NCBI GenBank assembly: GCA_964016885.1
Contig: OZ024748.1
Span: 57,536,001-57,600,000, forward strand
Length of the DNA: 64,000 nt
DNA from: Eledone cirrhosa
Lineage: Eukaryota
Direction of reading: 5' to 3'
The position numbers and the translations under genes are program-made. Below, piece after piece: positions 36,401 to 63,806 of the stretch (within the stretch, counting starts at the first letter, position 1; each line of letters starts with the position of its first letter). The notes below the pieces were generated by a model, which worked only from the letters and a program-made list of their open reading frames with translations, ran no database searches and had not been told where the DNA came from.

Positions 36401-36754
36401 TGATTAACGATCATAAATATAGGTTGAGAATGTGTCTAGTAAAGTTAACAGCATTATATTGAAGATAGCAAACGTTGTTGCATATCGTAAACTCGTTTAA
36501 TAAGGATTATTAAATTTTTGTAGTCACACAACGAGATTCTTAACATTGTAATCGATTAACTCATAAATAATGTATTATACTTAACGGTTTTACTGAAGTG
36601 ACTCAGGCCTTCGGTTATTTATTTATGTTTATACCAGATAGTCGATCGCTATAACAACATATTACAATTAAGACTATTATTATTGCCATTTTATTTAGGA
36701 CAATAACATTTGACACACACAGGCAGACAGACAGACTCAGATACATACATACAC

Positions 36755-37220
36755 GATGGCTGCCCTCTCGTTATTGAGTATGGCTATTGCACGATATACC
36801 ATTATTAATAATTATTAATTAATTCTATCGTGCAATGCTTGTGCGTGAAGATATTTTTTAAAGTGAGGAAAGACTGTGCACGGAAACAATCCCACTCTCT
36901 GAGCGACAGTAGCTATAACCCGAAAAGAAAAGATCAACATCATCGGTAACTACTGAGCCGCAGGTTTTATATCGGAGTTATCCCAGTTGTTTGAGTTGAC
37001 TGCTACTAGAAGAATGCCCTGACAAAGGCTAGGGGTCCTTCACTCCCAGTGGTTTAACCGCGCGATCGGGTGTCCAGCCCGACTTTTTCTATGTCCCTGC
37101 GCATATACATACACATGTACCCATGTATATACACATATACATACATATGTACATATGTATATACATATTTACACACTTTTAGATGGCCGTTGACTCTTAT
37201 GAGTTCTTCCGTCCTTTGAT
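36755..37220 (-). mobile_element. RTE-tailed non-autonomous element (empty allele-like copy)
   Basis: Homologous to 38919-39485 without the SINE; minus 3' end gtgcaatagccatactcaataacgagagggcagccatc matches the LINE tip. Confidence 0.85.
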
Positions 37221-37304: not shown

Positions 37305-37306
<2 letters not shown>

Positions 37307-37490
37307 CGAATGAGGTGTGGTAAGGAACCAGATGGACCATAACGCACAAAAGTACTCAATACTTAGAGTATTAGAGTGGGTAATAGGAAAATGTCTGACC
37401 CCGACGGCAGAGCCCAAGGCGTTTCGACGGCTGTATGCAGAAATAGCCGTCGAAACGGCTTGAGCTCTGCCGTCGGGGTCAAACATTTTC
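37305..37490 (-). mobile_element. Hairpin element with 3' half-hammerhead
   Basis: Fold-back 37387-37490; arms carry GAAA cggc-ttgagctct-gccg TC ggggt; homologs at 63568 and 23432; (TA)n flanks. Confidence 0.8.
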
Positions 37491-37507
37491 TTATATATAT
37501 ATATATA

Positions 37508-37605
37508 CAGAGTGTCCCAAAATTGTATACACATTTTCAATAGCAGTACAGGCAACATTTATTAGAATGCATAGCCTCTGTGCATATATGGTTTTGGACA
37601 ACCTG
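37508..37605. mobile_element. Tc1/mariner-type MITE
   Basis: TA-cagagtgtcccaaaattgtatacaca ... tgtgcatatatggttttggacaacctg-TA; shares cattctaataaat with 5617-5730. Confidence 0.6.
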
Positions 37606-37618
37606 TATATATATATAT

Positions 37619-38163
37619 ATAAACGGAAAAAATGAAACGAAATTTCATTTCTCACTCTTAGTAGGGCTGTTACTTAAATATAAGTATGTATACGTACATA
37701 CCTATATGTATACAGACGTACAGTAGTATGTGTGTGTATATATATATATATACATACATGCACACATATATATATGTACGTATGGATTCACCAAACATTT
37801 ATTATAATGCTCGGTGTGTTTGTAAACAAACATACCGTATTAAGCCGTAGTGTCTAGCAACCATCATTGCTCATTTGTTCAACACTGACAAAGGAACGCT
37901 GTACTAGTTTCAAGTTTATTAGCTATCGTCAGCAACGTATACCTTCCTGCCAGATGGTTGAACGTCTGAAAGTATATACTTTCCTTATGCATATTAACGG
38001 CTGAGCAGCCTAATTTGCATATCGAGTGAGTTAATCGGCCGGGGTACCGAACACGATAAACGGAAAAAATGAAACGAAATTTCATTTCTCACTCTTAGTA
38101 CAGCTGTTACTTAAATATAAGTATGTATACGTACATATATGTATACAGACGTACAATAGTATG

Positions 38164-38203
<40 letters not shown>

Positions 38204-38232
38204 CATGCACACATATATATATGTACGTATGG

Positions 38233-38235
<3 letters not shown>
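37619..38235 (-). mobile_element. Terminally redundant hammerhead element (period ~437 bp)
   Basis: ~170 bp direct repeat 37619-37788 vs 38056-38235 enclosing a hammerhead; (TA)n on both sides. Confidence 0.75.
37896..37938 (-). ncRNA. Minimal type I hammerhead ribozyme
   Basis: Minus: acgttg CTGACGA tagctaataaactt GAAA c-ta-g TA cagcgt; 6 bp stem I, palindromic ACUAGU stem III, GUA site. Confidence 0.82.
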
Positions 38236-38296
<61 letters not shown>

Positions 38297-38918
38297 TGAC
38301 ACCCACCGAAGGATTTTGCAAATGTGCTTAATATTCATAAACGACGAGATGAAATATACACATAACCCCAGGTTACCAATTACCCAGAAAAGCGCCTGTA
38401 ACATCATCTGGATCACATCATTTCGGCTGTAGTCTTGTTCTGATTGTGTGAACATTGATAATGCAAACAGATCATATCGATCTGATGTTGAGAAAATAGG
38501 ATATAGCAGTTATATAGATGTTCGTTATGCACCTGAGAGCGAGAAGATGCAATTGCTCAAATCGGCGTAGAATAAGGGAATCTAATATATCGTGTACACG
38601 AAATGGAAATTTGAAGGAACAGCCCAGTGCTGGAACAGTATCCCACCTCATTACATCACATAAGTTTGTAGTCATCTTACTCGGTATATCGTTTGTAAAA
38701 TGACATACCTAATCATTGCAATTCAACGCCAGGATTTCTGAGAATAAACGCTCTCACCCTCTCTCTCACTCTTTCTCACTCTTTCTCACTCTTTCTCACT
38801 CTCACTCACTCTTTCCCACTCTCTGTCACTCTCTCTCACTCTCTCTCTCTGTCTCTCTCACTCTCTCTCTCTCACCCTCTCTCTCACTCCTCGCTCTCTC
38901 TATGTATGTATATATATC

Positions 38919-39618
38919 ATGGCTGCCCCCACGTTATCGAATATGGCCATTGCACGATATACTATTATTAATAATTATTGTGGATTGGCAGTATCGGTAG
39001 AGAGTCGGACGCTATGCTTTCCAGCATAGTTACATCCCTTTACGGTCTGAGTTCAAATCCCGCCGAGGTTCACTTTGCCTTTCATCCTTACGGGGTCGAT
39101 AAAATAAAGTACCAGTAATGCACTGGGTAATTGATGGCCTTGTGCCAAAAGTAGAAACAATTATTAATAATTATTAATTAATTCTATCGTGTAATGCCTG
39201 TGCGTGAAGATAGTTTTTAAAGACTGTGCACTGAGACAATCCAACCCTTTGAGCGACAGTAGCTATAACCTGAAAAGAAAAGATAAACATCATCGGTAAC
39301 TACTGAGCCAAAGGTTTTATATCGGAGTTATCCCAGTTTCTTGAGTTGGCTTCTCCTAGAAGAATGCCCTGACAAAGGCTAGGGGTCCTTCACTCCCAGT
39401 GGTTTAACCGCGCTGTACATGTGTATATACATATTTACACACTTTCGGATGGCCCTTGACTCTTATGAGTTCTTCTGCCCTTTATCAGGTTTTTTTTCCC
39501 GCAGGGTTTCCCAAATCCCCCTCCTCACCAAGTAAACTTGCCGGTTTGGTCACCGACGACCCGACCATGCGACAGGTTGTACTGGGTTACATGTTACCAG
39601 TAGCCTCAAGAGTGACTC

Positions 39619-42542: not shown

Positions 42543-45131
42543 TAGTTCTCATCTAAAGCTTATTCCACAATAGCTATAGGAAAATAATTAGTTTCCTTTA
42601 AGAAAAAAAAAAAAAAAAAAAAAAAATTAAAAGTTAAACGTGTGGTTTTCTTGCTGTCATGTTATACTATCCAGACCACATTTGTTTACTTTAGATAAAG
42701 TATAACTTTGTATAAAGGTGGTATGCTCTGACCACATCGGCTTTAGTATAAGTGCATTATAAACTTAGTGAGTAGTCTCCTAATATTAATATCTTGAAAT
42801 TTCATAGACATTGTTAGCACGGCTAAATACATTATATGGACAATCTTAATTCTGGTATTCTGTGATGTGTATCTGATATTAACTTCTTTAGTTTTCTGTG
42901 GTTAGGTATGTTTTATATAATTCACACTTTAATTTCCGTATGGTGTATCTTAGTAATTTTAATTTATCTTCTTCTCCTTTCAAGTATTTGTCGAGATTGT
43001 TACTTATTTTTCTTATTCGAACCTTTTGAGTTTGAATTCATATTAAGTTGCACTTCGACATATTGATATTTCAACAATGATGTCATATAAAACAGCCACT
43101 TCTCAGTTTATTTTTATCTTTTCAATCGGTTCTAAACCCCATCTGTCATGACTGGGGTATCTGTAAACCTGTCAATCCCACCTTTGTTTATATCAGGGTC
43201 GTCTGTCCATTCATCAATTGTAAAATTCGCCCTTTAAATCCATCCATCCTGCCTACTCTTCAGTTTTACAGACTCAATACAAGACCACATCTCCATCTAT
43301 ATTACTGCTCTGTCCAGTTGGTCATCGTTCTACCCGTCATCTCTACATTGACATAAGAAAGCAGACATAGCCGAAATTATAAAACGATTAGTCTTTTAAT
43401 CTCATTTCACGCCTGCAAAACAATAATAGCCCACATGTTTCTTGCTATTAAAAATATAATAGTCAACAAACAAGAAACATTGAGAAAAGACATTACCCCC
43501 TACCCTAATAAAAAGCAACAACACCAACGAAATAGAACTGTTAATGCACATTTACTTTTGGCAAGCATCCTATCTATATCTTTCGGAAACAATAAACAGA
43601 TTTTTAATTGTGCTGTTGTCTCTCAACTTCAAACGGAGAAGACTGTCTGAATGGTGAACCGAAAAACAATAATTTTAAACATTATTATAATAGTTGTAAC
43701 ATAAAATATAAAGAAGTCAGTAATAACAAAAAAAATGCAACTCCAATTATAATGAAATAAAGAATTATAGCAAATAAATATATAGAAAAGATTCTATTAT
43801 GAACAGGAAATGAAGCCGACATATCTTTTGAGTTTTTTGCCAATACAATAATTACAAAATTATTCGACTTCAATATCTGAAAGTCACATCTATTTATGTA
43901 CAAAAGACATGAGATCTAAATTGTCTGTCCATCAGTCTATTTCGTTCAATATCTGTCTGTATGTCTGTCCGTCTGTATGTATGTGTTGCTGCCAATCTGT
44001 TTATATACCTATCTATATAAATATTTAGCAACCACTCTCTATGACTGCCTATATTTTTGTTTGACTCTCGATAGGAAGAACAAAAGAAGATATATGGCAA
44101 GAGGTATGTGAATTCTATTATAACTAAAAGGCTATACAGTGAATCAAGTGCCAGTAATTTCGTGCTTAACTGCACATGTCAATAACCTTTTGACGAGTGA
44201 GACTTATCCCCAAACTCTCGGATGTCCAGCCAGTGACGCCGCTATATATACATATAAGCTCATACACACATATATACGTGCGCGCGCGCACACACACATA
44301 CACACATATATATATATATATATATATATCAGTGGCGAAGGGTAACCTGGAAAGCAGAGCATGTAGTCCAATCGCCATGGCGGAAAGTGAGGTTGTACAG
44401 CCTACCCCCCCATTTCCCTCTAAACGACCCTCCCAGTCAAAGCCGCATGTAGTGTTATCTAGTGTGTGTGTGTGTATGTGTTATCTTTTTATGTGTCTAC
44501 GATTTAGAAAGCAGCCAAAATTCTGCTTGCTTCAACCGACGCAATTGATCAACTCAAGACTCTATAACGCATGCGCAGACCCCTCGCCCCTGATATATAT
44601 GCATATATTTATATAAACCATATATTTGACATAATCTACGTGCAACTGCCCCTATTGCGAATAACGTATTGTGTACATTTTGATTCCCTGGGCTTATGTT
44701 CAGATATTGTCTCATAGATTGACAAATGTGAGCAGTTGGAGCCGTAATGAATAGCATTCCTGTTTACTAATAAATACGCACATAGACGCACACAGACATA
44801 CACAACACCCATACACAGCATCCACCCACCCACGTGTTTGAGCTTGTATAACTCATATGCCACCAATCTCAATTAGAGCTATGTAAATATATGGTGTGAT
44901 TAATATCAATAGATAGGTGGAATCTCTCTCTCTCTCTCTAATATATATATATATATAACTGAACAAAAAAGAAAAACGAACACAGACATATACATGTATG
45001 TGTTCAAATCGTAATGGACCAGAATCGCTAAGGTGAAAAAATACTAACTACAGACAATAGGGTTTTCTAGACTCAATTTAAGAATAAATAAATAAAAATA
45101 AATACAAACCAGTATTGTGGTAACTACCCAT

Positions 45132-45212
45132 CACCCGGACGGTTTTTGATAGAACCGTTTCGCAATATTATTTGTGAAGAGGTTTATCAAATTCCTAGCT
45201 CATCAGCGGGTG
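45132..45212 (-). ncRNA. Canonical type I hammerhead ribozyme, intact
   Basis: Minus: cacccg CTGATGA gc-taggaatttgataaacctcttcacaaataatatt-gc GAAA cggtt-ctatcaaa-aaccg TC cgggtg; all core nucleotides, 6 bp stem I, full stem III, GUC site. Confidence 0.93.
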
Positions 45213-45480
45213 AAGAATTAGAATCCTGATCACTTCTAAATAAAATAAAGAACTGGATAGTGTGTGTATATGTAACGCACATGGTTTTCGAACTTAGAGC
45301 GTCGCGCAGACTCACGCCACGTTAATTCGTAGAGCTAATTCAAATGTCGTGTAGACCCGGCTGCTAGTTTTAGTGGCGTGAGTCTGCGCGACGTGTTAAA
45401 TTCGAAGATCATGTGCGTTACATATACACACACTATCCAGTTCTTTATTTTATTTAGAAGTGATCAGGATTTTAATTGTT

Positions 45481-45759
45481 CACCCGCTGATGAGCTAGGA
45501 ATTTGATATACCTCTTCACAAATAATTGTTTCTACTTTAGGCACAAGGCCAGCAATTACCAGTGCATTACTGGTACTTTATTTTATCGACCCCGTAAGGA
45601 TGAAAGGCAAAGTCAACCTCGGCGGGATTTGAACTCAGATCGTAAAGGGACGTAACTATGCTGGAAAGCATGGCGTCAAACCCTCTACCGATACTGCCAA
45701 TCCATCTACCTCTTCACAAATAACATTGCGAAACGGTTCTATCAAAAACCGTCCGGGTG
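45481..45759 (+). ncRNA. Same hammerhead on plus strand, interrupted by SINE in stem-loop II
   Basis: cacccgCTGATGAgc at 45481 and gcGAAAcggtt..aaccgTCcgggtg at 45728-45759. Confidence 0.85.
45526..45706 (-). mobile_element. SINE family A with 17 bp TSD
   Basis: TSD tacctcttcacaaataa 45509-45525 / 45707-45723; empty site preserved in the left arm. Confidence 0.95.
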
Positions 45760-46019
45760 ATGGGTAGTTACCACAATACTGGTTTGTATTTATTTTTCTT
45801 GATTTATTCTTAAAATGAGTCTAGCAAACCCTATTGTCTGTAGTTAGTATTTTTTTCACCTTAGCGATTCTGGTCCATTACGATTGGAACACATACATGT
45901 ATATGTCTGTGTTCGTTTTTCCTTTTTGTTCAGTTATACTATACGCCTCGGAAAAACCTTTTTCCTAGAGCTAATTTGACTGTAATGAGACTATTTTGAG
46001 TTTCTAACACAATACATGC

Positions 46020-55170: not shown

Positions 55171-55204
<34 letters not shown>

Positions 55205-55236
55205 CAGAGTAGTAACACAACAGTTAGGTCACCATA

Positions 55237-55277
55237 CCGAGAACAATTGTTTCACCTTATGCGGATCTTCAGCCCAG
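55237..55277 (-). ncRNA. Minimal type I hammerhead motif
   Basis: Minus: ctggg CTGAAGA tccgcataaggt GAAA c-aatt-g TT ctcgg; palindromic ACAAUUGU stem III, GUU site. Confidence 0.72.
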
Positions 55278-55385
55278 ACTGGTCATATACCCCCCACTCT
55301 CAAGCGTGAAACTAATATTAACATATGTACTTCCTCTTCGCTTCCACGTTGTTTTTGTTTACTGTCGCAGCTATAATATTTATAT

Positions 55386-55604
55386 GGCGGTGGATTGGCA
55401 GTATCGGTAGAGAGTCGGACGCCATACTTTGCAGCAAAGAGTAACGGCCCTTTGTCATTCTGAGTTCAAATCCCGCCGAGGTTAACTTTGCCTTTCATCC
55501 TCATGGGGTTGATAAAATAAAGTACCAGTCATGCAGCGGGGTCGATTTAATCGACTTTCCCCTACCCCAAAATCACTGGCCTTGTGCCTATATAAGAAAC
55601 CAAT
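55386..55604 (+). mobile_element. SINE family A, long variant
   Basis: Full core plus ggggtcgatttaatcgactttccc segment. Confidence 0.9.
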
Positions 55605-63312: not shown

Positions 63313-63355
63313 AATATATATATATATAAATATATATATAGTTTTAATATAGATG

Positions 63356-63406
63356 AGATTCTACAGGACTAGAACTGTTTCATTCTTTAGAAATCATCAG
63401 GAATCT
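63356..63406 (-). ncRNA. Hammerhead motif with bulged stem I
   Basis: Minus: agattc CTGATGA tttc-taaa-gaat GAAA cagttctag TC ctgta gaatct. Confidence 0.65.
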
Positions 63407-63567
63407 GGGTATCAAAAAATAAAAATGGTATTTATAGGTCTCTACAAGTGGTAGGAGAGGGTGGGGAGTGGGATGGGTGTAGGTCATTGGTTGATAGAAA
63501 AGGGAATTCATTAAAAGCTAATTCTACAAAGCTATAGTTTATTTTTATTTATTTATAAATATATATC

Positions 63568-63753
63568 GGAAAATGTTTATCCCCGACGGCAGAGCGCATG
63601 ACGGCTATTTCTGGACGAGTCCAGAAATAGCCGTCGAAAAGGCTTGAGCTCTGCCGTCGGGGTTAAACATTTTCCTATTAACCACTCTACTACCCTAAGT
63701 ATTGAGTACTCTGGTGTGTTATGGTCCATCTGGTTCCTTACCACACCTCCTTC

Positions 63754-63756
<3 letters not shown>
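63568..63756 (+). mobile_element. Hairpin element with 5'-truncated hammerhead
   Basis: Inverted 5' copy 63568-63595, then atgacggctatttctggac-ga-gtccagaaatagccgtc GAAA aggc-ttgagctct-gccg TC ggggt. Confidence 0.8.

Positions 63757-63806
<50 letters not shown>

Follow-up and report, generated by a model that had tools for sequence, protein, structure and literature searches.

A hammerhead-bearing partial tandem between (TA)n runs is likely an inactive relic written by a PLE enzyme

Metazoan non-LTR retrozymes are described as non-coding elements with a unit of 150-450 bp, a GC content below 50% and a canonical type I hammerhead with a short palindromic helix III (PMC7229834). A more-than-unit cDNA copied from a circle and an origin from Penelope-like elements (PLEs) have both been proposed for them (PMC7229834; 10.64898/2026.07.22.740005), two ribozymes are taken as the criterion for an active retrozyme, and cleavage was reported in only one of nine tested retrozyme dimers (10.64898/2026.07.22.740005). 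Cephalopods are not known to be among the species surveyed (PMC7229834; 10.64898/2026.07.22.740005). Hydra-clade PLEs, for example Hydra-1_Obim, are described with a (TA)n target, a hammerhead near the 3' end, partial tandems with a pseudo-LTR and 5' truncation; nearly all Hydra families are listed as (TA)n inserters, and one of the families comes from Octopus bimaculoides (PMC8557442). Traits described for PLEs include partial tandems, truncated 5' ends and a preference for (TA)n, the last in Hydra, Naiad and Neptune (PMC8557442). Non-autonomous Chlamys elements such as MRC1, which had once been taken for LTR elements, derive from PLEs, are short and non-coding, and come with pseudo-LTRs and copies arranged head to tail (PMC8557442). 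Plant LTR retrozymes and TRIMs have direct repeats around a non-coding middle. A repeat annotation of Octopus vulgaris reports 31 recently active PLE families, and the word ribozyme is not used in the text of that source (PMC13282606). A literature search combining hammerhead or retrozyme with octopus or cephalopod, with Repbase, Dfam and subscription journals outside its scope, returned no description of the family analysed here.

In the window, which is the whole 64-kb stretch of DNA analysed and is TA-rich, of animal type and possibly from an octopus-like host, judging from a SINE resemblance, a 617-bp insert lies between two (TA)n runs (Table 1). This insert is likely to be an inactive relic of copying by a PLE enzyme, probably one of the Hydra clade, and it appears to work like a non-LTR retrozyme monomer or a PLE partial tandem with a pseudo-LTR. 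All of the retrozyme properties named above for unit length, GC content, coding capacity, hammerhead type and helix III are shared by the insert, as is a U·U at the base of helix II, which is also present in the axolotl retrozyme ribozyme HHR_Amex2 (PMC7229834). With one hammerhead in 1.41 units the insert falls short of the two ribozymes expected of an active retrozyme and is at most a monomer. The (TA)n target, the position of the hammerhead near the 3' end, the partial tandem and the 5' truncation are shared with Hydra-clade PLEs, whereas the insert is without an RT/EN ORF, has a 6-nt palindrome as helix III where Hydra elements have 3-4 bp, ends 277 nt past the ribozyme and carries a hammerhead that differs from the one in the Hydra-1_Obim row (PMC8557442). 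It is accordingly filed neither as an active retrozyme, since tandem ribozymes are absent, nor as an autonomous Hydra element, since there is no ORF. The Chlamys elements are algal, mostly without canonical hammerheads, and are reported to share 3' sequence with an autonomous partner (PMC8557442). The parts of the insert gave no significant alignment to the local Hydra relic described below (18 and 274 of 300 shuffles scored as well), and neither X nor Y was significantly similar to that relic or to eight other relics (18/300 shuffles in the best case). The plant elements differ in having type III ribozymes inside the LTRs, a PBS, a PPT and 4-bp duplications. An LTR retrozyme or TRIM was rejected on anatomy, as the ribozyme is of type I and lies in the middle, and no PBS, PPT, TG...CA ends or 4-bp duplication were seen by eye in the insert.

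Table 1 Features of the insert and one context feature of the window, in window positions
Feature	Position	Strand	Description
PLE relic, Hydra-type, 5'-truncated	29069..30180	+	RT thumb and GIY-YIG-type region; context, outside the insert
Left (TA)8 run	37606..37621		Run read from sequence; putative left half of the target microsatellite
X1, first redundant copy	37619..37788	-	Forms the element's 3' end when read in the ribozyme sense
Putative 3' half, Hydra-type hammerhead	37660..37685 (X1), 38097-38122 (X2)	-	Picked out by eye
Hairpin, 11 bp, -13.7 kcal/mol	37789..37816	-
Y, unique part, 267 bp	37789..38055	-	Non-coding; predicted fold is a hairpin chain around the ribozyme
Type I hammerhead	37880..37960	-	Single copy, in the unique part Y
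Octamer ATGCAAAT	38013..38020	-	May be an internal promoter element
X2, second redundant copy	38056..38235	-	Upstream 5'-truncated partial unit in ribozyme sense (pseudo-LTR position)
Right (TA)29 run	38235..38292		Run read from sequence; putative other half of the target microsatellite

The insert is composed of X1 (170 bp), Y (267 bp) and X2 (180 bp), with X2 repeating X1 in direct orientation at a start-to-start distance of 437 bp, and 617/437 gives 1.41 units. The 437-bp unit has a GC content of 36%. Alignment of the two X copies gave 161 matches, 5 substitutions in 166 aligned bases and 18 gap columns, the latter made up of a 4-nt indel and a 14-nt length difference in an internal TA run. 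X1 starts with 65 bp of complex sequence (37619-37683) followed by approximately 105 bp that are TA/TG-rich, and about 60% of X is microsatellite-like. Read in the ribozyme sense the order is X2-Y-X1, which is a partial tandem with a pseudo-LTR, truncated at the 5' end. The longest stop-free stretch in six frames was 69 aa and there was no ORF in the insert. In a BLAST search of the window with the unit, neither X nor Y nor the X|Y junction turned up again outside the insert. The initial annotation had described about 1.4 direct units with a 170-bp redundancy, no ORF and (TA)n flanks, and each of these points was borne out.

At its left border the redundancy overlaps the TA run by 3 nt, and at its right border by 1 nt. 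The left overlap (ATA, 37619-37621) is common to the (TA)8 run and the element, a 3-nt microhomology that would mark the priming end, and X2 breaks off at the position matching the foot of the 11-bp hairpin. At the outer end of X the junction reads CGT(1-4)A, a motif carried by 8 of the 101 clean TA edges against 3.1 expected; this result is weak, as the motif was picked after the fact and three of the eight edges belong to one family. Elsewhere near TA runs, approximately 100-bp elements with imperfect terminal inverted repeats were present between runs at 37506-37607 and ~5616-5726, and these we take to be Tc1/mariner-like MITEs. A broken LINE reverse-transcriptase ORF, presumably RTE-like, was located at 12021-14453 (+) beside a 200-N gap. 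Long palindromes were present at 9416-9663, 23588-23792 and 24688-24956, and related dispersed repeats of approximately 430-600 bp at 36746-37217, 38909-39483, 18158-18748, 20482-20912 and 9303-9417. The repeats at 36746-37217 and 38909-39483 were considered as LTRs of a larger element, a reading dropped since pieces related to them are present in other parts of the window.

The hammerhead core is made up of CUGACGA (37932-37926) and GAAA (37911-37908) on the minus strand, with the palindrome ACUAGU (37908-37903) as helix III and predicted cleavage at 37902/37901 after A37902 at a GUA site. Helix I has 6 bp (37938-37933 with 37901-37896) and is extended through a bulge. Helix II (37925-37912) is weak, with a U·U at its base followed by A-U, G-C, a C×A mismatch and U-A. 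When the 267-bp Y was dinucleotide-shuffled 5000 times, no shuffle matched the descriptor, which upholds the earlier claim of a hammerhead with an ACUAGU palindrome in the unique part, and the minus strand can now be assigned to it. The hammerhead was undetected by Rfam at every threshold tried, with no match on 37800-38050, only TA-driven miRNA-type noise locally and no match at gathering level in the whole window. A hammerhead pattern had no exact matches in prokaryotic genome contigs.

Canonical metazoan type I hammerheads are described with a helix I of 6 bp, a helix II of 4 bp and a helix III of 1-2 bp with a palindromic loop, and the min-HHR of metazoan PLEs with a helix II of 7-8 bp, a helix I of 4-5 bp, little or no helix III, an extra base before helix II and G10.1-C11.1 (PMC4209133). 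The hammerhead in Y, with four helix II positions including the U·U base, six base pairs in helix I and a palindromic helix III, fits the canonical type I rather than the minimal PLE type, and the term minimal hammerhead in the initial annotation therefore named the wrong class on helix sizes and helix III alike. Helix II looks damaged. In a nearest-neighbour model, in which tertiary contacts of the core are ignored, helix II did not fold on its own and the active monomer conformation was 8.8 kcal/mol above the minimum. Dimer pairing through the palindrome could yield a helix of 6 bp at -6.8 kcal/mol. Self-cleavage is predicted to be poor. With a single ribozyme and a mismatched helix II, this locus could not itself release a unit-length RNA. 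A U·U at the helix II base occurs in 14 of 25 Hydra families (our count from the supplement of PMC8557442), and the U·U-type pattern CTGANGAT..TGAAAC was present three times in the window against 0.03 expected.

About 8 kb from the insert, the 5'-truncated relic contains an open frame of 276 codons (29069-29899), of which a 267-aa stretch had 19 homologues among 488 candidates (best E 1e-42), with 7 of the 19 aligned. Pfam gave no name for the frame and only a sub-threshold PRD match. The frame has a CxCX5C linker in which the last C is replaced by F and degenerate traces of CxxC/CxH, motifs that mark the Hydra clade (PMC8557442), and these motifs point to that clade as its probable assignment. 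A degenerate U·U-type hammerhead with one core mismatch was seen by eye in the 3' UTR of the relic at ~30110-30160, 22 nt before a (TA)n run and about 210 nt from the stop codon.

A descriptor scan of the window gave six hammerhead matches, where 40 block shuffles gave 0.05 on average, a density that suggests very many genome-wide. The other matches were in short relics ending at TA runs, some with inverted partial copies. The region 44957-45937 is an inverted pair of ~390-bp arms with an outward-pointing hammerhead in each and fits a fold-back PLE insert; its right hammerhead is split by a SINE with a 15-bp duplication in helix II. A hammerhead-bearing unit of ~370 bp with the palindrome AUAUAUAU as helix III was located at 10447-10912, and an inverted copy of the final 97 bp lies ahead of it. 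Further short relics with a single hammerhead each were present beside (TA)n at 5348-5592 (+), 55203-55390 (-) and 63338-63420 (-), the last of which has a degenerate relative at 5798-5955 (-). A repeat family ending in (TA)n (37306-37494, 63555-63757 and 23430-23523) features a long hairpin whose centre is a stem followed by GAAAC, which may be a fold-back at hammerhead helix II; CUGANGA was not found in its three members. Set among the several other hammerhead relics of the window, a single locus of this kind is ordinary, and partial tandems, (TA)n targeting, hammerheads and the PLE origin of retrozymes are already in print. The earlier reading of the insert as retrozyme-like stands in part, and had overlooked the closer PLE context of partial tandems, (TA)n targeting, the U·U in helix II, the Hydra relic and the hammerhead relics.

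The sequence around and within Y was also considered for promoter-like and structural features. The octamer ATGCAAAT, which we take to be an snRNA-type octamer motif, had seven matches in the window on both strands, and no proximal promoter element was recognised alongside the copy in Y. A TATA-like hairpin loop (37797-37806, minus strand) lies ~215 nt downstream of the octamer, a spacing that resembles snRNA promoters. Newt satellite 2 is described with an snRNA-type promoter (PMC2220036). The circular 437-nt unit folded at -127 kcal/mol with a z of about -6 against shuffles, and this strong fold was rejected as evidence because TA-rich windows matched for GC and TA content equalled or beat it, with 9 of 39 reaching z <= -6.5. 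Y by itself had a fold z of -2.7 and its last 65 nt a z of -3.45, with -3 attained in 17 of the 716 background windows. Folding of the complex X sequence was only modest and unremarkable (z of -2.1 and -1.5), as 54 and 91 of these windows reached -2 and -1.5, respectively. A 7-bp helix between Y and X near their junction was set aside, chance being judged enough to account for it, and the possibility that X is an old diverged copy of the post-ribozyme part of Y was rejected as 473 of 1000 shuffles scored equally.

The complex 65 bp of X may be the end of another Hydra relic, judging from a possible half-hammerhead in which a 4-bp hairpin is followed by an A and then by a stem I-like strand. 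Compared by eye with the cleavage region of the Hydra-2_aJap (sea-cucumber) row, copy 2 of X matched at 15 of 15 nt and copy 1 at 13 of 15, and no matching 5' half was found. The hairpin pattern by itself is common, being present at 12 of 101 TA edges, and was for this reason rejected as proof by itself. A second working hammerhead formed by X and the core in Y was likewise rejected, as by eye stem I would not pair.

We consider it roughly 45% probable that a PLE enzyme, probably of Hydra type, nicked the (TA)n run and reverse-transcribed 1.4 rounds of a 437-nt RNA in circular or tandem form. The enzymatic steps are drawn from published models (as set out in PMC4209133, PMC7229834 and PMC7761336). 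Transcribed from a source locus with at least two units, the RNA would have cleaved itself at GUA and become circular, or would have remained in tandem, with a unit of 437 nt. After nicking (TA)n the enzyme would have used the 3-nt ATA overlap for priming, and the cDNA would have run through X, then through Y across the cleavage site, and then into X again until it stopped at the hairpin foot and was joined to the other half of (TA)n. The coincidence with the hairpin would equally fit a natural end of Y at this point. X may have been acquired earlier as a downstream flank holding the 3' end of another Hydra relic, and we infer that such a capture of X onto the RNA reconciles its element-like and host-like features. 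A more specific form of this history, in which the insert is a rolling-circle RT fossil of a 437-nt chimeric retrozyme, with a body carrying the presumed snRNA-type octamer and a captured Hydra 3' end including half a ribozyme, is doubtful in our judgement and decidedly on the improbable side.

The length of the redundancy could also be explained if Y alone (267 bp) were the element and X were pre-existing host DNA, composed of TA-rich sequence and an older PLE 3' end and copied as a target-site duplication of ~170 bp. The distance from the ribozyme to the 3' end is 277-280 nt with X and 107 nt without it; in 23 of 24 Hydra families this distance is 25-148 nt (our arithmetic from the supplement of PMC8557442, omitting one family listed only with a 5' copy), and at seven other hammerhead sites measured in the window the first TA run was 6-180 nt away. 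The longer distance exceeds those 23 families and all seven sites, and the shorter one lies within both ranges and fits Hydra elements. The microsatellite-like composition of X and the possible end of a different Hydra relic within it speak for host DNA as well, and target duplications of retrozymes are said to exceed 4 bp (PMC7229834). Against this, the two nicks would each need to lie no more than 1-3 nt from an X/(TA)n border, a coincidence of roughly 1% by our arithmetic for nicks placed anywhere in runs of 16 and 58 nt, lengths that may have changed, and the staggered cut would have to span 170 nt while skipping the TA runs inside X. Target duplications of PLEs at microsatellites are described as often not discernible (PMC8557442). 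One target run split by one insert accounts for both TA borders at no cost, and since both ends of the redundancy lie at (TA)n edges, a reverse-transcribed partial tandem is favoured and the duplication of host DNA appears unlikely. The 5 differences in 166 sites between the X copies fit either age or two templates. Of the earlier proposal of a more-than-unit cDNA, the preference over a long target duplication is thus retained, with only 1-3 nt of TA shared at the (TA)n edges, while its circular template is less secure, given a single hammerhead, a unit that does not recur elsewhere in the window and a mere ~120 nt of sequence upstream of the ribozyme.

That upstream stretch is too short to set aside the truncated 3' UTR of an autonomous PLE, and two 5'-truncated 3' ends of an autonomous Hydra-type PLE arranged head to tail would make 437 a mere truncation length. 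In such a history 437 nt would have been copied, followed by a jump or re-priming at the 3' end and 180 nt more. No remnant of an ORF would be expected, as the ~120 nt upstream of the core are fewer than the ~210 nt between stop codon and hammerhead in the relic at 29 kb, and neither a short circle nor a non-autonomous family is needed. The other hammerhead relics of the window are truncated or have inverted partial copies, and metazoan PLE hammerheads are described mostly as single motifs of probably truncated PLEs (PMC4209133). However, no more than 'AT' of a TA tail is present at the X|Y junction, and a jump to a read-through 3' end might have added a longer piece. Helix III, a 6-nt palindrome, resembles that of retrozymes and is longer than the 3-4 bp helices of the Hydra rows (PMC8557442). 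We regard this arrangement as rather unlikely. It is very unlikely that recombination has shortened, or the assembly collapsed, what was or is a longer tandem array bearing at least two hammerheads. Retrozymes are known to occur as dimers to multimers (10.64898/2026.07.22.740005; PMC7229834) and a collapse would leave an X-Y-X layout, but microsatellite arrays of ~2 kb are resolved in the window with one 200-N gap, which suggests an assembly from long reads, and the X copies are distinct at 5 sites.

The proposed copying of a circular or tandem RNA by a PLE enzyme bears on which enzyme mobilises such elements, for which the Hydra-type relic of the window provides a candidate clade. The origin of PLE partial tandems and the enzyme of animal retrozymes have been argued from distribution and phylogeny and not from junctions in the published accounts (PMC7229834; PMC8557442; 10.64898/2026.07.22.740005). 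If the chimeric history were true, Hydra would be the enzyme mobilising a non-LTR retrozyme family in a probable cephalopod, and priming would be pinned to ATA within a TA run and stalling to the hairpin foot. A family of 1.x-unit copies with a fixed 3' end, a shared X|Y junction and variable 5' ends would directly test the circular-template model at the genomic level.
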